Shown here one piece after another: positions 1 to 11,383 of a DNA stretch of 11,383 nucleotides. Under the pieces are notes generated by a model. That model searched no databases, was not told the origin of the DNA, and saw only the letters and a program-made list of their open reading frames with translations. Position 1 is the first letter of the stretch. Each line of letters starts with the position of its first letter. A program made the position numbers and the translations under genes. Source of the stretch: Candidatus Wukongarchaeum yapensis (lineage in GTDB: Archaea; Asgardarchaeota; Wukongarchaeia; Wukongarchaeales; Wukongarchaeaceae); the NCBI GenBank assembly GCA_016840425.1, contig JAEOSI010000054.1:1-11383 (forward strand), written 5' to 3'.

Positions 1-2
1 TC

Positions 3-635
3 AGTACCCGTATTCAAACCTATGGCTTTAAGAGTGAAAGCACATTGTCAAAAGATAACGTAAGTTTGACCGTGGATGCAGTATTGTTCTTTAAGGCGGT
101 CAATGTAGAGGCGGCGATCCTTCAGGTTGAAGAATACCTTAACGCAACCCAGTGGGCGGCTCAAACAACTCTTCGTGAGGTTATAGGTCAAAGCGAATTA
201 GACGAGGTTTTGACCCACAGGGAGGCAGTAGCCCACAAGGTTCAAGAGATAGTTGATGGCAAAACGGAGCATTGGGGGATAAAAGTTACCTCTGTTGAAA
301 TAAGGGACGTCATTTTGCCTCACAGCTTGGTTGATGCCATGGCGAGACAGGCAGAGGCAGAACGGGAACGCAGGGCTAGAGTAACCTTAGCCATTGCAGA
401 AGCTGAAGCAGCTCATAAGATGGCGGAGGCTTCGCAAACTTATGATAAACATCCTACGGCTTTGGCTCTTCGTTGGATGAATCTTTTGTTTGAAGCTTCT
501 ACGCAGGGTAATAGTACGATAATCTTAGTGCCTTCGGAAGTTCCTACAGCTGGGTTTAGTGCGTCACAACTTGGAGTATACGGGATAAGGTCAGTAACGG
601 AAGCGGCGAAAGAAAAAAGAAAGGAAGGAGAATAA
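3..635 (+). CDS. SPFH/band-7 (stomatin/slipin-like) protein, 5'-truncated by the window edge
   Basis: The frame is open from position 3 (STRIQTYGFKSESTLSKDNVSLTVDAVLFF), so the TTG at 45 is not the true start. Typical SPFH motifs: AQTTLREVIG, ELDEVL..RE, WGIKVTSVEIRDV, MARQAEAERERRA, ALRW. Confidence 0.95.
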   Translation, partial: STRIQTYGFKSESTLSKDNVSLTVDAVLFFKAVNVEAAILQVEEYLNATQWAAQTTLREVIGQSELDEVLTHREAVAHKVQEIVDGKTEHWGIKVTSVEIRDVILPHSLVDAMARQAEAERERRARVTLAIAEAEAAHKMAEASQTYDKHPTALALRWMNLLFEASTQGNSTIILVPSEVPTAGFSASQLGVYGIRSVTEAAKEKRKEGE

Positions 636-717
636 TAGGAATAATGGAGAAAATAAGTTCTTTACTGTCTCGTTTATCCAAAAATCCGTCGATAAAACTA
701 GTTAGAAGAATTGATCC

Positions 718-736
718 TTTATTTTTTTTCTTTTTG
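718..736 (+). terminator. Oligo-T tract, candidate archaeal terminator of the SPFH gene
   Basis: TTTATTTTTTTTCTTTTTG about 80 nt downstream of the stop at 635. Confidence 0.4.
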
Positions 737-818
737 AAAGGTAAAAAGAGTCTTCAAAGTAATGGAAAAATTTGAATAGTTTTAGAAAGGTAGTATTTTG
801 TGCGGGTGGAGTATCTTA

Positions 819-1280
819 ATGATGGAAAAGTCTCATGTTTGGAAAGTAGTTTTTGAGGGACCAGAAACGGGTGCAGAGGATGATTATGTTTTAGATTTTA
901 CTGATACTAAGACTGTTTTAAACGAGGAAATTTTCCTTAAGAAAGAGTATATAACTAAGTTAACGAGTATAATGCGGGAAGACAAAATTCGATATCATTT
1001 TATAGGTAATATAAAGTCGTGCTTAGACCCTGATGAAGTAGAAAGAATAGGAGAACCATTTTACGCATTAGTAGGTACGGAAAAGGAAGAAGATCACAGA
1101 TGTGGCATTCTTTTCACAAAAGAACCTGAAAACCTTTTTCCGGTGGTAGGGATTTGGCCTAAAGAGTTTGCTGAGGCTTGCAAAAAATCTTCAAAAATCC
1201 TTGACCAAGTACTTGTATCTTTTATTGAAAAACCAGAAGTATGGCGCCATGTTGGTTTGATAGTAAAAACAGCTAAATAA
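819..1280 (+). CDS. Hypothetical soluble protein (~153 aa)
   Basis: Long ORF with globular-protein composition. Start placed at ATG 819 (or 822), which follows GGGTGGAG at 804-811, rather than at TTG 798. No family recognised. Confidence 0.8.
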   Translation: MMEKSHVWKVVFEGPETGAEDDYVLDFTDTKTVLNEEIFLKKEYITKLTSIMREDKIRYHFIGNIKSCLDPDEVERIGEPFYALVGTEKEEDHRCGILFTKEPENLFPVVGIWPKEFAEACKKSSKILDQVLVSFIEKPEVWRHVGLIVKTAK

Positions 1281-1330
1281 AAAAACACTAATTTAAAACT
1301 GTTTTTGCTTTCCTTTAAGGGGACCAAATG

Positions 1331-1364
1331 TATTTTTTGTGCTCTTTTGGGGGCACCAAAAATA
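1331..1364 (+). terminator. Hairpin downstream of the hypothetical gene
   Basis: TATTTTT-t-GTGCTC-ttttgg-GGGCAC-c-AAAAATA forms a 13-bp stem with one mismatch and one G.U pair. Confidence 0.35.
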
Positions 1365-1449
1365 CAAATATCATTTTCACAATTTATTATTATTAAGAAC
1401 ATACTTTGTTTTCGTTCCTTGATTTTTAAAGTATTAGTCTGGGGTCTCT

Positions 1450-1989
1450 ATGGCGTTAAAACATACCTGTAATAAAGCAAGGATTAGAAGGTCAAAGGAA
1501 AGGAAAAAAGAAAAGGCAGCTTATGAATGTCTTTTATATGGGGGTAAGTGTCTAATAGGTCCTAAAGACTATGAAGGTGTTGTTAATTGTCGTTTGGGAG
1601 TTTTTTCTTCTTCTAAACAGTTTAACTCAAAGAGAATGAAGGAAAAAATAAGTTTTGATTTTGCTACTAAAATGAAACATGCTAAACTTTTTGTAAGAAA
1701 CGTGATTAAACGGAAAATAGGGGGAAAACACTTATGCACATACATACGTTTCGAAAAAACAACTGATGAATCTCAGCAGTTAAAAATGAATTTGCTATTA
1801 CACCCTCTTTTATGTGTAGCCTGCGACTATTTTATAAAACCAGCACCAAAGAGGCTAGAAGGAAAAAAATTGGAAAAACGTAAAAAAATATTCTTAATCG
1901 ATGGAAAAGAGTATATCAAAGCTGAGAATTGCACTTATAAAGCTAGAAGACGGCAAGCACTCAAAGCATTCCTTAAAGACAAAAAATGA
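1450..1989 (+). CDS. Hypothetical, very basic, Cys-rich protein (179 aa)
   Basis: ATG-initiated 540-nt ORF with no competing long ORF. K/R-rich, 8 Cys including a CVAC motif. Convergent with rps25e. Confidence 0.7.
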   Translation: MALKHTCNKARIRRSKERKKEKAAYECLLYGGKCLIGPKDYEGVVNCRLGVFSSSKQFNSKRMKEKISFDFATKMKHAKLFVRNVIKRKIGGKHLCTYIRFEKTTDESQQLKMNLLLHPLLCVACDYFIKPAPKRLEGKKLEKRKKIFLIDGKEYIKAENCTYKARRRQALKAFLKDKK

Positions 1990-2028
1990 AGAAGAAACGA
2001 CCTTTTCTAAATCGCTTTGTCTTAAAAA

Positions 2029-2343
2029 TTAAGTCGTTTTCTCTTTTTCTTCTGTTTTTTTAGCTTTCTCTAAAGGTACATATATTGCCACACGGCCGGA
2101 TTTAAACCGTTTTTCAATGATTCCTTTTGAAACCATCTCTTCCAAAACTTTCTTAGCTACACTTACCCGGATGCCATATTTTTCAGCGATAAAAGTAGGG
2201 GTAACTACGGGCATTCGGGGTATCTCTTTTTCCATAGATTTTTGAACCTCATCACTTATTAAAAGGGCTCTTTCATAGGGAAAATGTTCCCGTATTTTGC
2301 CGAATTTTTTACGTACTTTACGAGAACCCTTTCTTTCAGCCAA
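2029..2343 (-). CDS. rps25e: 30S ribosomal protein S25e (eS25)
   Basis: Winged-helix core VVTPTFIAEKYGIRVSVAKKVLEEM..KGII......RVAIY matches remembered archaeal and eukaryotic eS25. Basic N-tail. Start placed at TTG 2343 (MAERKG), which follows GGTGGGTGG; GTG 2352 is the alternative. Confidence 0.92.
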   Translation of the reverse strand: MAERKGSRKVRKKFGKIREHFPYERALLISDEVQKSMEKEIPRMPVVTPTFIAEKYGIRVSVAKKVLEEMVSKGIIEKRFKSGRVAIYVPLEKAKKTEEKEKTT

Positions 2344-2391
2344 AAAGACCACCCACCAAGGTAAAACAATAGAGAAGTGAAGATTTCAAAA

Positions 2392-2399
2392 TATTTAAA
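2392..2399 (-). promoter_or_regulatory. Candidate TATA box for rps25e
   Basis: TTTAAATA on the minus strand about 50 nt upstream of the start. No clear BRE. Confidence 0.35.
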
Positions 2400-2602
2400 G
2401 GATGTTGTTTAGACTATTCTCAGCTCTTCTTTTTTGCTAGAAAGTTGAATTTTGTTTTAAGCTATTTATATTTGTCGGACTTTAAATAATTCCCAAAGAG
2501 TTGAAAATTCTCCAAGATCAAATGAAGAAAAATTTAAGGGAGGAAAGATTAATATTAATGACATTATATCTGTTTTGCACCGTAATTTAGCTGTAGATTA
2601 CC

Positions 2603-2616
2603 GTTAAGTTTATATA
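2603..2616 (+). promoter_or_regulatory. Candidate BRE-like element plus TATA for the ABC operon
   Basis: GTTAAG-TTTATATA, with the TATA at 2609-2616. The box is near-symmetric and could serve either direction. Confidence 0.45.
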
Positions 2617-2741
2617 CGTTTGAATATATTAACACGTTTGATAAAATTAAAACGTATTAGAAATTTCAAATGAGGTTATCTTTAAACAAAACCATAAGTC
2701 AAAGGTTAAGATTTTAGAACTCTCCCTCATATTTTTAGAAG

Positions 2742-3710
2742 TTGGTTAAAATGGTTGAAAATGCCCCCGTCATTGAAACGTTTAGAATTTCGAAAAACTA
2801 TGGCCTTGTCGAAGCAGTCAAAGATTTGACTGTTAGCATCCCGCAAGGGGGAACTGTTGGTCTGCTGGGTCCGAACGGCGCAGGAAAATCCACCACGATT
2901 AAATTGCTTTTAGGTTTGGTTAATCCTTCTCTCGGCGAAGGGAAGGTTTTAGGGATGGATATACGAACCAAGGGACTAGAAATACGGGATAGGGTAGGTT
3001 ATATGCCTGAACATGACTGTTTCATCGGTGACATCGATGCGGTTAAATATGTAATGCATCTTGGTCGTATGAATGGGATGTCTGTAGCAGATGCTCTTCG
3101 GAGAGCTCATGAGGTTCTTTATTATGTGGGGCTAGGGGAGTCTCGATATAGGAAAATTGAGACCTTTTCTTTGGGTATGAAGCAAAGAGTGAAGCTTGCC
3201 CAAGCTTTGGTTCATGATCCTGAACTGTTGATCCTTGATGAACCGACAACAGGAATGGATCCTGATGGTCGTATAGATATGCTTGAACTTATTAAAGATA
3301 TAGCAAAATGTGAAGATAAGACGTTGGTTATGTGTAGTCATATTCTTGCAGATGTTGAGAGGGTGTGTGATAGGGTAGTGATCATGAATAGGGGAAAGCT
3401 TGTTAGGACGGGATCTTTAAAAGAGCTGGTTGAAGGGAAAAAGGAGGCAATAATACTTCGCGTTAAAGGCGATTCAAACCTTTTGATTGATAAGTTTGAG
3501 AGGGAAGGAATTTCAGCTGAGTTGAGGGATGATGCAATCTTAGTTTTTGCGGGAAATAATCCCTCAATTAAGAAAAAGGTTATGGAAATAATGGCAGAAG
3601 CGAAGATGCAACTGAGATATTTTGGAAAGCCTACTGCTTCATTGGAAGACCTCTTTTTGTCAACTATTTCCTACGAAGAAGAAGCAGAGAGAGAAAAAGC
3701 AAGCATCTGA
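2742..3710 (+). CDS. ABC-2-type transporter ATP-binding subunit 1
   Basis: Walker A GPNGAGKST, Q-loop region GYMPE, signature FSLGMKQR, Walker B LLILDEPT, H-loop SH. The true start may be ATG 2751. Confidence 0.97.
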   Translation: MVKMVENAPVIETFRISKNYGLVEAVKDLTVSIPQGGTVGLLGPNGAGKSTTIKLLLGLVNPSLGEGKVLGMDIRTKGLEIRDRVGYMPEHDCFIGDIDAVKYVMHLGRMNGMSVADALRRAHEVLYYVGLGESRYRKIETFSLGMKQRVKLAQALVHDPELLILDEPTTGMDPDGRIDMLELIKDIAKCEDKTLVMCSHILADVERVCDRVVIMNRGKLVRTGSLKELVEGKKEAIILRVKGDSNLLIDKFEREGISAELRDDAILVFAGNNPSIKKKVMEIMAEAKMQLRYFGKPTASLEDLFLSTISYEEEAEREKASI

Positions 3711-3750
3711 AGGAGAAAAGTGTTGCCTTTGAAAGGAGGTTATGTTTCTT

Positions 3751-4620
3751 ATGAGTATTGAAAGTTTAGGTTATAAGGAGTGGGAGGGACAGAAACACGG
3801 TAGGTTTTACAAGGTTTTATCTTTGGTTGATTATGAGGTTAGGCATGCTTGGAGCAGTATTTGGGTTAAAATTCTCATAATTATAGCGTGGCTTCCTGTT
3901 TTAATCATATTTTTAGTGCCTGTAACGGAGATTAGTGAGGAAGGTGTTGATAGGGCGTTTTATAATCTTGTGAGTTTTACCACAAGTATAACAATTTGGC
4001 TCCCGATTATGGCTGGTTTGATTGGTGGGGGTTTGATTGCAAATGATAAAAATAACAAGATGTTTTCCATGTATTTTTCCCGCCCTCTAAGGCGAGAAGA
4101 TTATATCGCGGGGAAAGTTGGAGGTTTTGCTGTTTTAATGAGTATTCCCACCATCGTCCCTGCCCTCATTATTTATATCGTGCTTATCGGAAAATCAGAT
4201 CTTAGCCTTTTAGTTTTTATTAAAAAGTCTTGGTTGTTGGGAGCAGCTTGGCTTTACTTCATTTTATTGATAGCGCTCTTTGGTTCCCTTGTTCTGTTTC
4301 TTTCATCTGTGGTGACTGATTCAAAGTATGCTGTTGTTGGACTTTTCACCATAGTCATCTTGTCAGACCTTATAGCAAACCTTCTTTGGTTAGCTTCAGA
4401 TAACGAGATTTACCGACTGGGATCTTTAACTTTCAACTTAGAAAATATACTTGCAGAATTTTTAGGGATTGACCAATCAACTCTTCAGTTGGCTGATCAG
4501 CAAAATGGGGGGGTAGGTGGTTTGGTTTCTGCGTGGAAAAGTCTTGTAGTGATTGTTGGGATAACTAGTTTTATGTCGGTACTTACCCTTTTAAGGCTCT
4601 TATCTTTGGAAGAAGAATAA
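3751..4620 (+). CDS. ABC-2-type transporter permease 1
   Basis: About 6 hydrophobic segments; 'IANDKNNKMFSMYFSRPLRREDYIAGK' is the typical ABC-2 cytoplasmic loop. SD AGGAGGT at 3734-3740 is only 1 nt from ATG 3742 but 10 nt from ATG 3751, so 3751 is preferred. Confidence 0.93.
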   Translation: MSIESLGYKEWEGQKHGRFYKVLSLVDYEVRHAWSSIWVKILIIIAWLPVLIIFLVPVTEISEEGVDRAFYNLVSFTTSITIWLPIMAGLIGGGLIANDKNNKMFSMYFSRPLRREDYIAGKVGGFAVLMSIPTIVPALIIYIVLIGKSDLSLLVFIKKSWLLGAAWLYFILLIALFGSLVLFLSSVVTDSKYAVVGLFTIVILSDLIANLLWLASDNEIYRLGSLTFNLENILAEFLGIDQSTLQLADQQNGGVGGLVSAWKSLVVIVGITSFMSVLTLLRLLSLEEE

Positions 4621-4626
4621 GGTTGG

Positions 4627-5580
4627 ATGATGGTAAAAATGAGAACTATAGTGAGACTTGAAAATGTTTCAAAGTGGTTTGGCGAAGTTGTGGCAGTAAA
4701 CAATCTAACATGTGATCTAAAAGGAGGCATTACGGGATTTCTTGGCCCTAATGGGGCTGGTAAAACCACCACGCTTAAGATGATTAATGGGATTATTGCT
4801 CCAAACCTTGGAAGGGTGACTGTTTTTGGGGAAGATCCTTGGGATAATATGGAGTTGCGTAAAAAAATCGGTGTAGTTTTTGAGATGGGAAATCTTTACG
4901 ATTGGATGACGGGGGAAGATTTTGTTCGAACCATGGGAAGACTTAGCGGTTTGAGGAGTGAAGATCTTGATAAAGGTGTGGAAAGAGCTTTAAAAATCGC
5001 TAATCTATATGAGGCAAAAAACAGGAGATTAAAAGGGTACAGTCACGGGATGAGGCAGAAAATTAAGATTTCTCAGGCGATTGTCCATGACCCTCAAATC
5101 CTTATCTTAGATGAACCTTTAGGGGGTCTTGATCCCATATCAAGGAGGTATATATCGGATCTGATAAGGGATTGGGAGAAGGAAGGAAAAGATTTGATAA
5201 TGAGTTCTCACGTGCTTCATGAAGTAGAAGCTGTGGCTAAAAAGATCGTTCTACTCTTTCAAGGAAAACTCCTAGCACAGGGTAGTATAGAGGCGATTAG
5301 GCGTTTGATTGATGAGCGGCCTCACACGATAAAGGTGAAGATTGATAAGCCTAAAGAGTTTGTGAAAGAGATCCTTGAATATGATTTCATATCAAGCGTT
5401 GTGTTTTTGGATAAAGATTCCTTAATTGTGAGAACTAAGAATCCTGAGGAGTTTTACACAGTTTTCCCTCAAATAGTGGCTAATAAAGGGTTTGAAGTAG
5501 AGTTTATGGGGGTAACGGATGAGAGTTTAGAAGCCGTCTTTAAATATTTAACAATGAGGACTAAAAGAACGAGTATGTAG
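4627..5580 (+). CDS. ABC-2-type transporter ATP-binding subunit 2
   Basis: Walker A GPNGAGKTT, signature YSHGMRQK, Walker B ILILDEPL, H-loop SSH. Confidence 0.97.
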   Translation: MMVKMRTIVRLENVSKWFGEVVAVNNLTCDLKGGITGFLGPNGAGKTTTLKMINGIIAPNLGRVTVFGEDPWDNMELRKKIGVVFEMGNLYDWMTGEDFVRTMGRLSGLRSEDLDKGVERALKIANLYEAKNRRLKGYSHGMRQKIKISQAIVHDPQILILDEPLGGLDPISRRYISDLIRDWEKEGKDLIMSSHVLHEVEAVAKKIVLLFQGKLLAQGSIEAIRRLIDERPHTIKVKIDKPKEFVKEILEYDFISSVVFLDKDSLIVRTKNPEEFYTVFPQIVANKGFEVEFMGVTDESLEAVFKYLTMRTKRTSM

Positions 5581-5630
5581 GAAAGAAGTGTAGTAATAGG
5601 ATAGTAAAAAAAGAGAAAGGAAGGGTTAAA

Positions 5631-6485
5631 ATGAGAATGGAAACAGGAACAGGTTCCCGATTAAAAATGGTGAACGAGGTAAGTTATCGGCTAGAAATTT
5701 TCAAAATGACCCTTAGATCTTATGCTAAAGATAGAAAATCGTGGATTTTAGAGATTTTTCTTTTATTCCCTCTTTTTGTTATTTTCATAATTACTCGAAG
5801 GTACGCGGATGAGGATTATAGGGAGACTGCTCAATTTCTTGGCGAGGAAGCGGCGAAACAACAGGCTTTGGGAGATATAATGGATCTAACAATTTATCTT
5901 TATATGGTAATTTTAGCTATTTTTGTGACCATAGTCTTAGGAACCTCTTTGCTTGGAACTGAGAAAAACGATAAAACGATCTATTATATATTGACTAGGC
6001 CTATTCATCGATATGAAATTCCTTTGCAAAAATTTCCAGCATATTTAATCTTTTCAACAAGTCTTTTCATAGTACCTTTAACCCTTTTACATATGACGAT
6101 GATGTCGGTGGTCCCTGGATCTAATGCCTTCACGGGAATAGGACTTGTGCCAAAACTTATATTCATCGCCCTTTTGTGTAACGCAGCTTATGGCTCCATA
6201 TTCATGTTTATAGGGCTTATTTTAAAACGTCCACTCCTTGTAGCTCTGATTATAGGCTTTGCAGGAAATCTTTTAACCTCACTGATTTTCTCAGGAAGCA
6301 CACAAGCCCAAACAACGATACCCTACCATCTTGAAGTCATAGGGAAAAGCTTTGTATCCTCGGGCCAAATAGCGACTATGGAGACCTTTAACACCGCGTT
6401 AACGTCAGTATTAACCCTCATATCATTAACAGCGTTTTTTGTAGCCCTTACAAGCATGAAAATCCAAAAGCAAGATTTCGAATAA
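5631..6485 (+). CDS. ABC-2-type transporter permease 2
   Basis: About 6 TM segments; loop 'LGTEKNDKTIYYILTRPIHRYEI..QK' parallels the loop of permease 1. Confidence 0.93.
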   Translation: MRMETGTGSRLKMVNEVSYRLEIFKMTLRSYAKDRKSWILEIFLLFPLFVIFIITRRYADEDYRETAQFLGEEAAKQQALGDIMDLTIYLYMVILAIFVTIVLGTSLLGTEKNDKTIYYILTRPIHRYEIPLQKFPAYLIFSTSLFIVPLTLLHMTMMSVVPGSNAFTGIGLVPKLIFIALLCNAAYGSIFMFIGLILKRPLLVALIIGFAGNLLTSLIFSGSTQAQTTIPYHLEVIGKSFVSSGQIATMETFNTALTSVLTLISLTAFFVALTSMKIQKQDFE

Positions 6486-6950
6486 AAAGCAACATCATAA
6501 ATAATAAAAAAAGAAAAGGGAAAATAAAAGATTTTGATTAGACGACAGTTAGTTAATTTTTGTTAAACCTCTTGTAAAACTGTTTTCGTTTTCAAGTTTT
6601 TAAGTTTTCAAGTTTCTTGTTTTCTCAGGCTGTGAATTTACCGCTCCGAGATTTTCAAGAATTAACCCTGTTTCGACACCTTTTATGAGAGAGTTTAAAG
6701 CTAGGAAAAATAAACGGAAAAAATCAACCTGTAAAAAAAAAGAGAACAAAAAAAATAAAAAGAAACGCTTAGCAAGTCCTTTCGGACCCAATATCCGCTA
6801 CTGAGATTTTTTAACTCCTCCGCTTTTTGCTTGCTGCCGTTTAACCGTTTCTCAAGACATGGCAACTCAAAGCAGTGTAGGCTAGGAGAGGAGATGATCA
6901 CTATGTAACTAACTCCCAAACAACCCACAAAACACCATCGCTGTACATAG

Positions 6951-6963
6951 AAAAATAAAAAAA
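6951..6963 (-). terminator. Oligo-T terminator of the desulforedoxin-like microgene
   Basis: TTTTTTTATTTTT on the minus strand, 28 nt after the stop codon at 6992-6994. Confidence 0.5.
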
Positions 6964-6991
6964 TCATAAACAAGTTTTACAACAGGTTTAA

Positions 6992-7099
6992 CTATTCTAC
7001 TTTTTTCATGGGTTTTCCACAACACATGGGCTGACTTTCCCAGTCCCAGACTTCAATTTCTGAAGTGCAGAAATCACAAACGTACCTAACCTTAGGCAC
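6992..7099 (-). CDS. 35-aa desulforedoxin-like (CxxC...CCG) metal-binding microprotein, absent from the ORF track
   Basis: Hand translation: MPKVRYVCDFCTSEIEVWDWESQPMCCGKPMKKVE*. GTG start 6 nt after a perfect AGGAGGTGA SD. The Y-x-C-x2-C-x14-CCG-x2-M pattern matches the desulforedoxin / desulfoferrodoxin N-terminal iron site. Confidence 0.88.
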   Translation of the reverse strand: MPKVRYVCDFCTSEIEVWDWESQPMCCGKPMKKVE

Positions 7100-7105
7100 T
7101 TAACT

Positions 7106-7114
7106 TCACCTCCT
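7106..7114 (-). promoter_or_regulatory. Shine-Dalgarno site of the microgene
   Basis: AGGAGGTGA, fully complementary to the 16S rRNA 3' end (UCACCUCCU). Confidence 0.8.
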
Positions 7115-7479
7115 CTATAAACGGGTGGGAATGGTGTTTTTGCAATTGAAGGTAATTTTTCTGGTGTAATTGTGAAGATAGGGGAGAAATTTTTATGGAA
7201 CTTAAAGACGACAAGGTTACTCGATGGTGTATGGTAGTGGAGGTATTTTTTGATTTTCACAACCACTATTCCCCTTAAAAAACTTTAGAAATGCTCCCAT
7301 TTTTAATCCTATCTTTAAACTATTATGTCAAAAAAATAAGAATAAAAAAAAGAAAATTAATTAAAAAAAGTCTATTTTTTATCATAGATTATCTGTTTTT
7401 TCTCTCTAAGATATAGGGTTAATCTCTATAATAAGGGGAAGAAGAGAATTTGAAGCGCAAAAAGCGTTAATTACCTACA

Positions 7480-7734
7480 TCAATCTTCTTCATTTTTCTC
7501 TTTTTCTTCTTTCGCTCCTTTCTTTTCTTCAATGGTTTTGATTTTTTCTTCTATTTTTCTAAGCCTGTTTTCAAACACCATTTTTATAAATTCAAGCAGT
7601 TTGATCTCTTCCTCTGGGGAAAGGATTTGAGGCAGGTCTTCGTCGCGGGCGAATAACAGCCATTTTTTAAACCAAGGACCTAAAAAAGGACCTAAAAATC
7701 TATCATACCAATAAGGCCTAAATTCATCCATCAT
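7480..7734 (-). CDS. Small protein with aromatic/Pro N-terminus and C-terminal coiled coil (DUF5320-like)
   Basis: Its start (ATG 7734 or 7731) overlaps the 3' end of padR. The C-terminal motif SPEEEIKLLE..K..FE..L..IEEKI..I resembles the DUF5320 tail from memory; the family call is tentative. Confidence 0.75.
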   Translation of the reverse strand: MMDEFRPYWYDRFLGPFLGPWFKKWLLFARDEDLPQILSPEEEIKLLEFIKMVFENRLRKIEEKIKTIEEKKGAKEEKEKNEED

Positions 7735-8419
7735 TTCCAACCTCTTTTTCTGCTTCTTCTACCTCTTCCCTTGCCTCTTCTTCTACCTCAATTTTTACTA
7801 ATTTAGATTCGTCTATTTTAAAGCTTAATTTGTCAATCTTTCGTTCTAGCTTCTCAATCTCCTTTTTTAATAATGTTTTACGTTTTTTAAGCGAGTCTAG
7901 GTAGTCTTTTTCTTCTTCTTTTTCTTCTTCTTCGTGTCTTTTGTAAAGATGTTCAGGGAAACTTGTTTTTAGGGCTGATCTTAAACTTTCAATAGCGGTT
8001 TGCATTGCAGATTTTACGGTGTATTTGGTGAACTTTCCGATCTCTTTTCCTAAATGTTCCCAATAATGAGATTGGAAAGCTATTTCTTCTTCAAATTCGT
8101 CCATGAAACGGTCTTCTTGAAAGACCTCTTCTAAAACCTTTTCGCCTTTTTCTGTTATTTCGTACAGAAGTTTATCAGGGACATCTTCCTGTGCTATCTT
8201 GCCTTTTTCCGCGATCAAGCCCTTTTCTTTTAGCTTGTGGAGGGCTGGATAAAGGGTTCCGGACTTTAGCTTCCATAGTCCTGCGAATTCGTTATCTAAC
8301 TCTTTTAGTATGTCGTAGCCGTGGGCTGGTTCTTTTGTTAGTTTAAGAAGTATTAGTATTTGTATTGGGGTGATTTTTCCTGCGCTTGTTTGAATTCCTT
8401 TTTTTCTTAACCAGAACAT
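7724..8419 (-). CDS. PadR-family transcriptional regulator with extended acidic/coiled-coil C-terminus
   Basis: ILILLKL..EPAHGYDILKEL......W.LKSGTLYPALHKLKEKGLI.......KLLYEITEKG is the PadR wHTH signature. SD AAGGTG lies just upstream of the ATG. Confidence 0.95.
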   Translation of the reverse strand: MFWLRKKGIQTSAGKITPIQILILLKLTKEPAHGYDILKELDNEFAGLWKLKSGTLYPALHKLKEKGLIAEKGKIAQEDVPDKLLYEITEKGEKVLEEVFQEDRFMDEFEEEIAFQSHYWEHLGKEIGKFTKYTVKSAMQTAIESLRSALKTSFPEHLYKRHEEEEKEEEKDYLDSLKKRKTLLKKEIEKLERKIDKLSFKIDESKLVKIEVEEEAREEVEEAEKEVGNDG

Positions 8420-8504
8420 TTTAAAAGCACCTTGCCTGAAGTTTTGGTTATGTAGTTCTCATTATATGTAGATTACTATATAGTTGGAAATATGGACAAA
8501 GACC

Positions 8505-8520
8505 TATATAAACCTTTCTA
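8505..8520 (-). promoter_or_regulatory. Archaeal BRE plus TATA promoter of the padR operon
   Basis: Minus strand reads TAGAAAGG-TTTATATA. The predicted start site is near 8480-8485. Confidence 0.7.
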
Positions 8521-8612
8521 TCAAAACCCCGCGCCAAAAAAAGAAAAAACAATGACAATCAGTAAGAGACAAATATAAATGTTTAATTAACTAGCATTTT
8601 TTCATATTACTG

Positions 8613-10730
8613 CTAACGAAACTCAAAAGAAACTAACCCCTGCCCATCCTTTTTCGTAGGAATTTTGGGAGGGTTATTCAGTTTTTCTGTTCCTTTTTCC
8701 CCCGATTTTATTTTTTCTAGAGTTTCTTTTACACTTTCTCGAAAGCAGTATTCTTCATCATTCAAAACTTGTTTGAGGGTCTCTATTGCTGCTTCTCCTA
8801 CTTTTGCCACTTTCCTCCATTCTCCCCTTGCTAATAGGTAGTAGGCTTTTTCTAGGTCGTTTGCAGGCTTCCACCCTAATTTTTCAAGAACTCTTACTAC
8901 TCCAAATCGAACATAGCAATCTTCATCCTTGAGAGCCTCAATAAGAGGTTTTAAAGCCCTTTTGCCACCTATTTTTCCAAGAGCCCACACCGCGCCATCT
9001 CGAACTGTGGAATCCCGATCTTTTAACGCTTTTACGAGAGGTTCTACCGCCCTTTTGCCACCTATTTTTCCAAGAACCTCCGCTGCTACTCTTCTAGCAT
9101 ACCTATTTTCATCCTTCAAAGCTTGGAGGAGGAGGTCAACAGTACTGCTATCTCCTATCTTTCGAAGGGCCCATGCTGCTCTCCTTCGAACATCACGATT
9201 TTCATCCTTCAAAGCTTGAATGAGAGGTTCAGCGGCCCTAACATCCCCTATAGCGCCAAGGGCCCATACCACGGCTCTTCGAACACCTTCATCTTCCTCT
9301 TCATCTTTCAGAGCCTGGCCGAGGGCTTCTACCGCCGGCTCTCCTATCTTTTCTAGAGCTTCTGCTGCCCACCATCGAATATAATTATTCTCATCCTTCA
9401 AAGCCTGAATGAGCTGTTCTACTGCCGGCTCTCCTATCTTAACAAGGGCCTCTGCTGCTCTCCACTGAACATCACTATCTTCATCATTTAAAGCCTGAAT
9501 TAAAGGTTTTATTGCCCTTGAATCCCCTATCTCTCCAAGAATCCATGCTGCTAACCTTCGAACGTCCCTATTTTCTACTTTCAAGATTTGAGTAAAATTG
9601 TTCAATATTTCAACTATACATCCCCATCTTAAAAAGATTAAATTATCAAAATTTGAAAAGGTGGAAACATTTCCTTCCCACCCTTTTTCAAATATATGGC
9701 CAAAATTTAACGTGAATAAAGAAGCCATATCTTTTAAGAAAAGCTCAGCTTTTTCTGGTAGAAGTTCGGGTTCAGCTAGCGTAACAAAAAGTAAGGCTAC
9801 CGTTTTAAATCTTTGCTTCAAACAGTAAAAGCTTGCTCCTTCTAGTTTTAAATGGTTTACTTCTCCACCGCCAACTTCTCTAGCAAATAGATTTATAGCA
9901 GAAAGAAGGCTACCTAACATCTCCAACTTTTGTTCATCTGCGCGCAGCTTTTTCGGCTGTGTCGCGTAGTTAAATATGCAAATTCCACCTTCAGTAAGAA
10001 TGAAAACGGCGTGTATCTCATCGAATATTTCTTTCCTTTTTTGTAATGTAAGCATATCAGACATCAAGAGTTCAGCCCATGCTACGTCTCTTCGAACATC
10101 ACGATTTTCATCCTTCAAAGCTTGGATGAGAGGTTCAACAGCCCTAGCATTCCCTATAGCGTCAAGGGCCCATGCTGCGTCTCTTCGAACACCTTCCTCT
10201 TCATCTTTCAGAGCCTGGCTGAGGGCTTCTACCGCCGGTTTTCCTATCTTTTCTAGAGTTTCTGCTGCCCCCCACTGAATATAGCCATTCTCATCCTTCA
10301 AAATCTTAATGAGCTGTTCTACTGCCGGCTCTCCTATCTTAACAAGGGCCTCTGCTGCTCTCCACTGAACATCACTATCTTCATCATTTAAAGCCTGAAT
10401 TAGAGGTTTTATTGCCCTTGAATCCCCTATCTCTCCAAGAATCCATGCTACTAGCCTTCGAACGTCCTTATTTCCTACTTTTAAAGCTCGTAGGAGGAGA
10501 TCAACCGCCGGTTCTCTTATCTTTTCAAGAGCATCTGTTGCTTCAAATCGAACCTCTAAATCTTCATCTTCCAGAGATTGAATAAGGGGTTCTACAGCCC
10601 TAACATCCCCTATCTCACCAAGAGCAAATGCCGCTTCCCTTCTAACATACCTATCTTTTTCTTTCAAAGCCTGGATGAAAGGTTCTACTGCCTGCTCCCC
10701 TATCATAGCAAGAGTAACAGCTGAAACCAT
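8613..10730 (-). CDS. PBS-lyase-type HEAT-repeat protein with an internal longin-like domain (705 aa)
   Basis: Many 30-31-aa repeats (AVEPLIQALKDED..VR..AA.ALG.IG) and a C-terminal LGWKP...Y.LA..EW motif seen in archaeal HEAT proteins. A non-repeat insert occupies roughly aa 220-382. SD GGGGAG lies 8 nt before the ATG. Confidence 0.93.
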   Translation of the reverse strand: MVSAVTLAMIGEQAVEPFIQALKEKDRYVRREAAFALGEIGDVRAVEPLIQSLEDEDLEVRFEATDALEKIREPAVDLLLRALKVGNKDVRRLVAWILGEIGDSRAIKPLIQALNDEDSDVQWRAAEALVKIGEPAVEQLIKILKDENGYIQWGAAETLEKIGKPAVEALSQALKDEEEGVRRDAAWALDAIGNARAVEPLIQALKDENRDVRRDVAWAELLMSDMLTLQKRKEIFDEIHAVFILTEGGICIFNYATQPKKLRADEQKLEMLGSLLSAINLFAREVGGGEVNHLKLEGASFYCLKQRFKTVALLFVTLAEPELLPEKAELFLKDMASLFTLNFGHIFEKGWEGNVSTFSNFDNLIFLRWGCIVEILNNFTQILKVENRDVRRLAAWILGEIGDSRAIKPLIQALNDEDSDVQWRAAEALVKIGEPAVEQLIQALKDENNYIRWWAAEALEKIGEPAVEALGQALKDEEEDEGVRRAVVWALGAIGDVRAAEPLIQALKDENRDVRRRAAWALRKIGDSSTVDLLLQALKDENRYARRVAAEVLGKIGGKRAVEPLVKALKDRDSTVRDGAVWALGKIGGKRALKPLIEALKDEDCYVRFGVVRVLEKLGWKPANDLEKAYYLLARGEWRKVAKVGEAAIETLKQVLNDEEYCFRESVKETLEKIKSGEKGTEKLNNPPKIPTKKDGQGLVSFEFR
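8956..9075. repeat. Exact 27-bp repeat pair at HEAT period (93 nt)
   Basis: GCCCTTTTGCCACCTATTTTTCCAAGA occurs at 8956-8982 and 9049-9075. Confidence 0.95.
9169..9584. repeat. Long direct repeat, copy B (416 bp)
   Basis: Aligns to 10075-10484 at an offset of 900 (906 before a 6-nt indel near 9291-9296). About 34 mismatches by hand count. 9408-9549 versus 10308-10449 has a single mismatch in 142 bp. Confidence 0.97.
9636..10016 (-). other. Predicted longin-like domain (aa ~239-365 of the HEAT protein)
   Basis: Pattern beta(IHAVFILT)-G-beta(ICIFNY)-alpha(LEMLGSLLSAINLFAREV)-beta(VNHLKL)-beta(FYCLKQ)-beta(ALLFVT)-alpha(AELFLKDMASLFTLNF)-WEGNVSTFSNFDNLI. This fits the bb-a-bbb-aa longin topology and the F..F...W.G....F..F...I tail of archaeal longins. 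Confidence 0.8.
10075..10484. repeat. Long direct repeat, copy A (410 bp)
   Basis: See copy B. For example, lines 9421-9480 and 10321-10380 are identical. Confidence 0.97.
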
Positions 10731-11192
10731 CTAATCGACTCCCCGTCTCCTTAATAAGCTCTTTCAACTTTTTTAATAATCTTAATGTCATGCCTTTTTT
10801 CTCCACTTTGATATTATCTATTTTTAGAATAAATTCACAATACTTTCAAAGTGAAACTATTCAAACCTAAACAAGACCACTATTTTAAAAATTGTGATAG
10901 GAATTTGCGCATGTTTTATTATAAAAACAAATAATAACATTAAATTACAAATTTTGTATTTATAAAAAATATCTAGTATCTATCAATAAAAAAAATCGAA
11001 AAAACGCTTCCAACAACTTGGAACTTTTCAAGAAAATCGTGCAAGAACTATTTGAAAAAACCATGCATGAGTTTGAATCAAAGGTGAGAAGAGTGTAGGT
11101 GTCAGACTCTCAAACCTTGTAAAAGAGGAAAAGAAACAGATACAAATCATGTGTTATCTAAAGGCAGGTAAAACCTGAAAACAGGCTCTTTG

Positions 11193-11226
11193 TTTATTCG
11201 AATGTCCATTTATTCGAATGTCCATT
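11193..11226. repeat. Perfect 16-bp tandem duplication
   Basis: TTTATTCGAATGTCCA x2 plus TT. Confidence 0.95.
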
Positions 11227-11383
11227 CATCTTTATTCTCTGACATGTCCTTCAATATTGATCGGGACATTTTTTCAGGGAGGATGAGAAACAGTTTTACC
11301 AAGTGTTTGCAGATCTTTTTCCTGTCTTTTCTTCTTTCCCAGTCAACGCAGTCATGCCGGATAATCTTTTCTTCCTTGTCGAT
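11210..11383 (-). CDS. C-terminal 57 aa of a protein with a SWIM-like Zn finger (5' part beyond the window)
   Basis: Hand translation: IDKEEKIIRHDCVDWERRKDRKKICKHLVKLFLILPEKMSRSILKDMSENKDEWTFE*. The H-x-C-x12-C-x-H spacing resembles SWIM (CxCxnCxH). Confidence 0.8.
   Translation of the reverse strand: MDKEEKIIRHDCVDWERRKDRKKICKHLVKLFLILPEKMSRSILKDMSENKDEWTFE

Follow-up and report, generated by a model that had tools for sequence, protein, structure and literature searches.

A HEAT-longin-HEAT gene of Candidatus Wukongarchaeum yapensis as the probable scar of one old rearrangement

We analysed a stretch of DNA of the Asgard archaeon Candidatus Wukongarchaeum yapensis (assembly GCA_016840425.1, contig JAEOSI010000054.1, positions 1 to 11,383; hereafter the window), which is an entire 11.4-kb contig of a genome bin (G000) of 2.16 Mb in 277 contigs. 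On the minus strand of the window, gene P0001 encodes a protein of 705 amino acids (aa) in which a longin module is embedded between two arms of HEAT repeats, and the module is bracketed by two direct repeats of about 410 nucleotides (nt), an upstream one (U) and a downstream one (D). An initial annotation of the window had read this layout as a potentially excisable domain cassette, built by the integration of a circle and able to be switched on and off. Comparison of the gene with its donor, its paralogs and its orthologs indicates that the layout is best read as a scar, most likely left by a single old rearrangement and now fixed, rather than as a functioning device for excision. What stood of the earlier interpretation are the frame register of the repeats, the gene conversion between them and the capture of the module; the switching and the Campbell-type integration did not stand. 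Precisely, we consider it probable that template switching in replication or repair gave rise to a tandem duplication carrying a templated insertion, which was kept as a useful in-frame product.

Origin of the embedded module

The two direct repeats were confirmed and lie within one minus-strand open reading frame (ORF; positions in Table 1). Over 410 ungapped columns, 35 substitutions separate them (91.5% identity), and in addition there is one indel of 6 nt, which is extra in D. Since the remaining in-register HEAT units of P0001 are only 62-71% identical, the U/D pair is far above the ordinary similarity of repeat units. The start-to-start offsets of 900 and 906 nt are both multiples of 3, as the initial annotation had calculated, and its arithmetic for an in-frame crossover product of 403 or 405 aa is also correct. 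The same applies to the near-identical core, which consists of 142 nt with one mismatch, the longest perfect run being 95 nt. If the 35 substitutions were placed at random, the probability would be 1.5e-4 for the 142-nt core and 2e-3 for the 95-nt run.

The 490 nt separating U from D can be aligned without gaps, at 87.3% identity, to positions 1180-1669 of contig C257 of the same genome, that is, from 10 nt upstream of a donor ATG through donor codon 160. In this case, a second copy of the module forms the N-terminal 160 residues of a stand-alone gene of 272 aa (79% protein identity), and the insert has no further copy in the G000 genome; the stand-alone family is present also in a sister species (G001) and in a few metagenomes. 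The leader carried by the insert, TGAACTCTTG, is identical in 10 of 10 positions to the donor leader of G001 and in 7 of 10 to that of G000, and its present translation is Glu-Leu-Leu, directly ahead of the Met that had been the start of the donor protein. At the other end, donor similarity stops at codon 160 of 272, at TTGAAAGTAGAAA, within sequence common to the start of the HEAT unit. The direction of transfer, from the stand-alone longin gene to the HEAT gene, is clear because the stand-alone family is the wider one, because the leader is included and because the copy stops in the middle of the donor ORF.

At the 3′ junction, the donor and the start of the HEAT unit (TTAAAAGTAGGAAA in U) share AAAGTAG..AA, and similarity passes from donor to HEAT inside that stretch. 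The insertion is a copy of an identifiable locus that is still intact elsewhere, on C257 and, as an ortholog, in G001; it stands exactly at the joint of the tandem duplication, with short homology at the 3′ side (AAAGTAG..AA) and at most GGG at the 5′ side. The junction sequences are identical in the window type and in a diverged ortholog of 592 aa (L044), therefore a single origin is indicated.

Two HEAT-only paralogs of the same genome, C34 (321 aa) and C210 (324 aa), contain the 410-nt segment once, continuous over both junction sites. C34 is 90% identical at the nucleotide level both to the N-terminal part of P0001 and to U (U-C34 89.5%, U-D 90.9%). In a maximum-likelihood tree of the segment, ((U_win,U_L044)90,(D_win,D_L044)80)91, C34 and then C210 branch outside the four copies of the two filled genes. 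On the basis of this tree, U and D are each other's closest relatives, the duplication is older than the split of the two lineages, and the two repeats have kept position-specific differences since that split; the U/D identity in L044 is 86%, and position-specific differences are common to both lineages. In the same tree, the branch of the window U is seven times shorter than that of the L044 U and the D branches are equal, an asymmetry of rate. We also considered C34 as a deletion derivative of the filled gene, and we rejected this possibility: a U-by-D crossover would give a left part resembling U and a right part resembling D, and what C34 shows is, if anything, the opposite order.

Synonymous divergence (dS) was calculated by the Nei-Gojobori method with our own script. 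It was 0.25-0.28 +/- 0.06 between insert and donor, 0.29 +/- 0.065 between U and D in L044, 0.12 between U and D in the window, 0.08-0.16 between the orthologous parts of the window gene and L044, and 0.22 between the donors of G000 and G001. The match of the U/D and insert/donor divergences, together with the position of the insert exactly at the duplication joint, is as a single event predicts.

The event probably proceeded as follows. In the course of replication or of break repair, the nascent strand would have departed from the HEAT gene after gene nt 656 and gone on for 490 nt with the longin gene as its template, before it returned to the HEAT gene at the short common sequence AAAGTAG..AA, 410 nt behind the exit point. 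This would give a tandem duplication that carries the templated insertion at its joint, with the reading frame preserved through selection. The resulting protein is a HEAT solenoid in which a longin domain is embedded; purifying selection has kept it since before the two lineages split, and U and D still swap short gene-conversion tracts, which holds the core nearly identical.

Scars of this kind are the subject of two reports (PMC8654963, PMC13167724). The order of the pieces in P0001 (a segment, a foreign templated piece, the same segment again) is like that left by fork stalling and template switching with microhomology-mediated break-induced replication (FoSTeS-MMBIR), by break-induced replication or, in eukaryotes, by end joining of the polymerase-theta type. 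As in template-switch scars, the foreign piece is copied from an intact locus elsewhere and the return junction is at a short common sequence. Unlike in those cases, the event is known here from its product alone and the 5′ junction is almost without microhomology; unlike somatic or disease lesions, P0001 contains a domain inserted in frame and maintained by selection.

Several points weigh against this origin. That both junctions come from one event is something we infer, as is the pathway, and the only basis for a single event is the final structure, which two separate events would give as well. Microhomology at the 5′ junction is little or none (GGG at most, offset by one base). Outside the core, U is equally close to D and to C34 (87.6% each, in the right-hand part), and the support for U and D as sisters drops to 72% without the core. 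The dS values rest on about 90-100 synonymous sites and are distorted by gene conversion; the value for U vs D in the window is 0.12. The orthologous HEAT gene of G001 is unassembled, with contig C96 ending at about aa 77 and contig C70 ending inside a PadR gene. Finally, U begins with Leu-Lys-Val-Gly-Asn (10471-10484) and the paralogs have Leu-Lys-Asp-Glu-Asn; in all strains and in L044, the Val codon at the start of U is GTA, as it is in the Lys-Val-Glu of donor origin at the D junction (9571-9584). This match could be either a lucky pre-existing one that guided the return of the strand or the result of a later conversion that brought in donor-derived bases.

Some of these points would fit two or more separate events, either a duplication followed by an unrelated insertion at the joint, or two neighbouring HEAT paralogs, with a longin gene lying between them, fused by two in-frame deletions. 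In the latter version U and D would be remnants of paralogous genes, and the C257 gene would be a sister copy and not the donor. The genome does contain dozens of PBS-type HEAT genes (39 matches), and the identity of C34 to U (89.5%) is almost that of D to U (90.9%), with the U-D and U-C34 identities equal outside the core. We nevertheless hold a multi-step origin to be rather unlikely: U and D form a pair to the exclusion of C34 (bootstrap 91; 72 without the core), the U-D dS in L044 matches that of insert and donor, and the N-terminal part joined to one segment and to a tail of the L044 type would be a normal family member of about 292 aa. Moreover, only a single event predicts the insert exactly at the duplication joint, and two independent in-frame deletions or insertions would otherwise be required.

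Fixation of the layout and exchange between the repeats

The 90%-identity protein cluster of P0001 holds five distinct 705-aa sequences, P0001 included, on seven contigs deposited at NCBI, JGI and ENA from different samples; one of the seven, that of the P0001 record with 12,589 nt, is presumably the window's own. The 592-aa ortholog L044 (88% aa identity) belongs to the same cluster. The N-terminal part, U, the longin and D were found in one contig in seven of the seven assemblies considered (the window and L045-L049 with 705 aa, and L044). The repeat-longin-repeat order is not a misassembly: six separately deposited contigs of different samples and sources, and a diverged ortholog, each span it in a single contig.

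An artefact in which the assembler joined a HEAT gene and a longin gene is thus extremely unlikely. The bin is fragmented (277 contigs), HEAT genes break contigs in the sister genome, and one contig discussed below (L043) shows that the region can be mis-joined. Against this, seven contigs from different samples, sources and assemblers agree, and the one further copy of the insert in the genome differs from it by 12.7%, hence the two do not derive from the same reads. The junction overlaps, of 0-10 nt, are far shorter than the word sizes of assemblers; the reading frame runs through both junctions, and selection has acted on the insert during its evolution.

The excision and on-off switching proposed in the initial annotation were not supported. 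The layout is the same in all seven assemblies, including the ortholog at 88% aa identity; the U and D copies group by position and not by genome (bootstrap 90 and 80); and the insert is under purifying selection (omega 0.32, window vs L044). A HEAT-only form of 403 or 405 aa carrying the C-terminal tail of the gene was not found in a search with the tail against proteins of 387-1234 aa among 5.8 billion clustered proteins, which returned only its own cluster at high identity. No two-longin protein was found either, the insert query against long proteins having matched only this cluster, and no further copy of the cassette was found in the genome. At assembly level, no empty or amplified allele was seen, all six strains and the one diverged ortholog being filled. 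To the extent that assemblies can reveal it, this is the outcome which the initial annotation itself had set against switching. Repeats that are homogeneous, as would be expected of an excisable cassette, were not observed, the U/D identity being 91.5% in the window and 86% in L044. As for the Campbell-type integration of a circle, it is not needed, the donor gene and both junctions fitting a duplication with a templated insertion.

We considered also, as an alternative, that the repeats are a working recombination substrate, from which one repeat and the longin are excised as a 0.9-kb circle, leaving a HEAT-only protein, that re-integration or unequal exchange brings the module back or multiplies it, as an on-off or copy-number switch, and that the present gene was built by a Campbell-type event. 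A perfect run of 95 nt and a near-perfect core of 142 nt are long enough for homologous recombination, in general, in bacteria and archaea. These lengths, the ongoing U/D conversion, and the start of L043 with the longin 3′ end, a hybrid D/U repeat and the longin would favour such a substrate. We regard it as improbable, given that seven assemblies keep the layout, that U and D have been distinct by position since before the lineage split, that the insert is under purifying selection, that neither a HEAT-only allele with the tail nor a two-longin protein nor a further cassette copy was found in the searches above, and that the start of L043 is more likely strain-chimeric (3 sites in 250 nt, a switch in the core, a contig end). 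The gene does resemble systems of repeat deletion and amplification and Campbell-type circles in that a module of 490 nt stands between direct repeats of 410 nt, which include a perfect run of 95 nt, and in that a crossover between them would preserve the frame. It is unlike them in that a deletion, circle or amplified form is unsupported, that no recombinase or mobile-element gene was found near P0001, and that the repeats have been diverging by position since before the lineage split.

A deletion by crossover is physically possible and is without trace in any assembly. The repeats might even be both a scar and in use, with rare crossovers or unequal exchanges removing or multiplying the longin module in populations and with a real L043 junction, and we give this combination very little credence. 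If true, it would mean a transposase-free toggling or dosing of a eukaryote-type trafficking domain within a scaffold protein.

The gene conversion that the initial annotation had suggested is real: among strains of about 99% identity, the differences fall in clusters and correspond to the state of the other copy. In U of the window, of L046 and of L043, six changes in 7 nt (gene nt 627-633) give the D state, and L045, L047, L048, L049 and L044 have the alternative one. The U of L046 has the D state also at alignment columns 178-182, and a stretch of D in L044 is U-like. On these sequence patterns we consider that short tracts are converted between U and D and that some of the conversion is recent.

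The identity of the core is only partly due to recent conversion, and constraint or concerted evolution across the family would contribute as well. Identity to the HEAT-only paralogs on other contigs is likewise high over the 142 nt (95% for C34 and 90% for C210), against 80-88% in their flanks. Within the core, the L044 copies differ at 12 sites, each a singleton of the L044 U or D; in the window lineage there is only one such difference.

Contig L043 (GCA_030587675.2) begins with 134 nt of the longin 3′ end. Next comes a repeat which resembles D over about 110 nt and U past the core, and then the longin, D and the remainder of the gene. This order is the one expected of a circle junction or of a tandem amplification. 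In its first 250 nt, 3 sites differ from L043's own longin/D junction, and the sequence is identical to the longin/D junction of five other strains. Because the permuted start is at a contig end, the switch falls in the shared core and the first 250 nt match other strains, it is more likely a strain-chimeric assembly path. In L043 (1-2027), moreover, the gene is called as two ORFs (390 and 275 aa), a change from GAG to TAG in D stopping the frame after ...QWRAA, and there are insertions of 15 nt in the C-terminal tail and of 6 nt in U; it could be a pseudogene or contain sequence errors.

Fold of the module, gene features and neighbouring loci

For residues 215-390, the AlphaFold2 (AF2) model, based on an alignment of 29 sequences, has a mean predicted local distance difference test score (pLDDT) of 89 and the order beta-beta-alpha-beta-beta-beta-alpha-alpha. 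In VIA-align comparisons the model was superposed on TRAPP Trs23/TRAPPC4 with Z 15.4 and a root-mean-square deviation (rmsd) of 2.2 Å over 123 residues, on the Sec22b longin with Z 13.6 and on AP sigma with Z 13.5; adaptor sigma and coatomer zeta/delta subunits gave Z 13-14, Mon1/Ccz1 and Fuzzy about Z 13, and Roadblock/LAMTOR proteins slightly lower values. Foldseek matches of the model had E values of 1e-4 to 1e-5. The 29-sequence profile, run against the PDB, matched the first longin of MON1 (4.6e-5), BET5 (6e-4) and TRAPPC1 (3e-3). We thus assign the module, as modelled, to the longin fold, with a domain of about 120-140 residues superposable on solved longins of the superfamily; the longin label appears justified at the level of fold and weakly at that of the sequence profile.

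The module shares fold and strand order with the TRAPP subunits Trs23/TRAPPC4 and Bet5, the sigma/zeta small subunits, Sec22b/VAMP7 and Mon1-Ccz1 (Z 12-15, rmsd 2.2-3.0 Å, 117-130 residues), and its profile similarity to MON1 and BET5 is weak but significant. It is unlike these longins in that sequence identity is 9-20%, there is no Pfam longin match, and the module is covalently embedded in a HEAT solenoid. The longin-like family is spread across the phylum as a module of varied proteins (L009-L022; L003:1318-3348, on G000 contig C145), for example a 676-aa protein with a large N-terminal part, a predicted membrane span and the longin at the C-terminal cytoplasmic end. HEAT motifs were not found in the longin-like carriers inspected among relatives, and no other HEAT-longin fusion was found with insert queries against long proteins and relatives, the HEAT check on the ORFs of relatives being a crude motif count.

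Cluster members of the window proteins are labelled Candidatus Wukongarchaeota, an Asgard lineage, and the P0001 cluster is labelled HEAT repeat protein. The window, in whole or in part, occurs in 20 listed sequencing runs, which belong to 15 studies. Both arms of P0001 belong to the PBS-lyase type of HEAT repeats in Pfam (HEAT_2, 6.7e-110, 7 stretches; HEAT_PBS, 1.8e-85, 13 stretches), with tandem helix-turn-helix units of about 30-31 aa and a unit period of 90-93 nt. No Pfam family matched aa 205-395 at E<=1. In the full-length AF2 model (6-sequence alignment) the HEAT arms were confident and the insert had a pLDDT <50, so the packing of the domains is not readable from it.

Table 1. Features of the HEAT-longin-HEAT gene in the window
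Feature	Position	Strand	Basis or remark
HEAT-longin-HEAT gene P0001, 705 aa	8613..10730	-	ORF; Pfam on both arms
Unique N-terminal HEAT part, codons 1-82	10485..10730	-	Single copy within the gene; 90% nt identity to HEAT-only paralog C34
Upstream repeat U, gene nt 247-656, aa 83-219	10075..10484	-	Ends exactly at the onset of donor similarity
Near-identical core in U	10308..10449	-	142 nt, one mismatch; partner in D at 9408-9549
Recent short gene-conversion tract in U, gene nt 627-633	10098..10104	-	D state at 6/7 positions in the window, L046 and L043
Captured 490-nt fragment (10 nt of donor leader and donor codons 1-160, longin domain)	9585..10074	-	Gapless, 87.3% vs C257:1180-1669
Donor leader within the insert	10065-10074	-	Now read as ELL
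Former donor ATG within the insert	10062-10064	-
Downstream repeat D, gene nt 1147-1562	9169..9584	-	Repeat finder and pairwise alignment; 6-nt insertion at about 9297-9302
3′ junction microhomology TTGAAAGTAGAAAA	9571..9584	-	U start (10471-10484) TTAAAAGTAGGAAA; donor TTGAAAGTAGAAAC
Further HEAT units and C-terminal tail	8613..9168	-	Past about aa 562 without similarity to ortholog L044, whose tail is of the C34/C210 type

An exchange between lineages has affected the 3′ end of the gene (window 8613-9045 vs L044:1940-2035). Past about aa 562 the window type runs for about 140 aa with a tail of its own, and the L044 ortholog stops 30 aa past that point with the tail ...EALEKIIAKKS, typical of C34/C210; the same PadR gene follows both. 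A search of metagenome contigs for PadR synteny gave two more distant loci (L050, L051) in which another gene stands upstream of PadR and a HEAT gene is absent; these loci are uninformative on the pre-insertion allele. In these loci (L050:9-527, L051:605-1027) the PadR neighbourhood contains a conserved gene of 142 aa and a protein of 140-172 aa, the latter roadblock/MglB-like by eye.

PBS-type HEAT genes are numerous, with 39 matched stretches in G000 and 36 in G001, several of them at contig ends, and they appear to be a main cause of contig breaks in the two bins. In the donor locus (L002:1190-2945, on C257) the 272-aa gene is followed by a 273-aa gene with a similar N-terminal pattern (G..L.......D..L.S.LISA...F), and no significant similarity between the two was found by BLASTP. 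Upstream are CutA1 and a zinc-ribbon/RING-like membrane protein.

Meaning for domain architectures in Asgard archaea

Asgard archaea have many lineage-specific combinations of eukaryote-type domains. Their shuffling is inferred from patchy distribution, and the route at the level of DNA is rarely visible. For the roadblock/longin "eukaryotic signature" proteins of these archaea, extensive domain shuffling is deduced by Liu et al. (bioRxiv 10.1101/2020.10.19.343400). P0001 is like the cases found there, its longin-superfamily domain being part of an architecture that has not been observed in eukaryotes and that is restricted to a narrow group of Asgard archaea; unlike in those cases, the donor, the recipient, both junctions and an approximate date are all readable. 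The HEAT-longin-HEAT architecture itself was not found in the passages considered of that paper or among the 40 relatives searched.

What can be read in this gene comprises the donor gene, the recipient family, the two junctions, the translated former leader and an approximate date, and the sequence evidence points to a copy-and-return error of replication or repair with no mobile element involved. It offers a concrete and testable example of a longin domain arriving inside a HEAT solenoid, and it recalls the longin small subunits nested in the solenoid large subunits of adaptor/coatomer complexes, a resemblance that is at the level of fold only. We consider this gene as a well-resolved example of how a known kind of rearrangement creates a new domain architecture in Asgard archaea.

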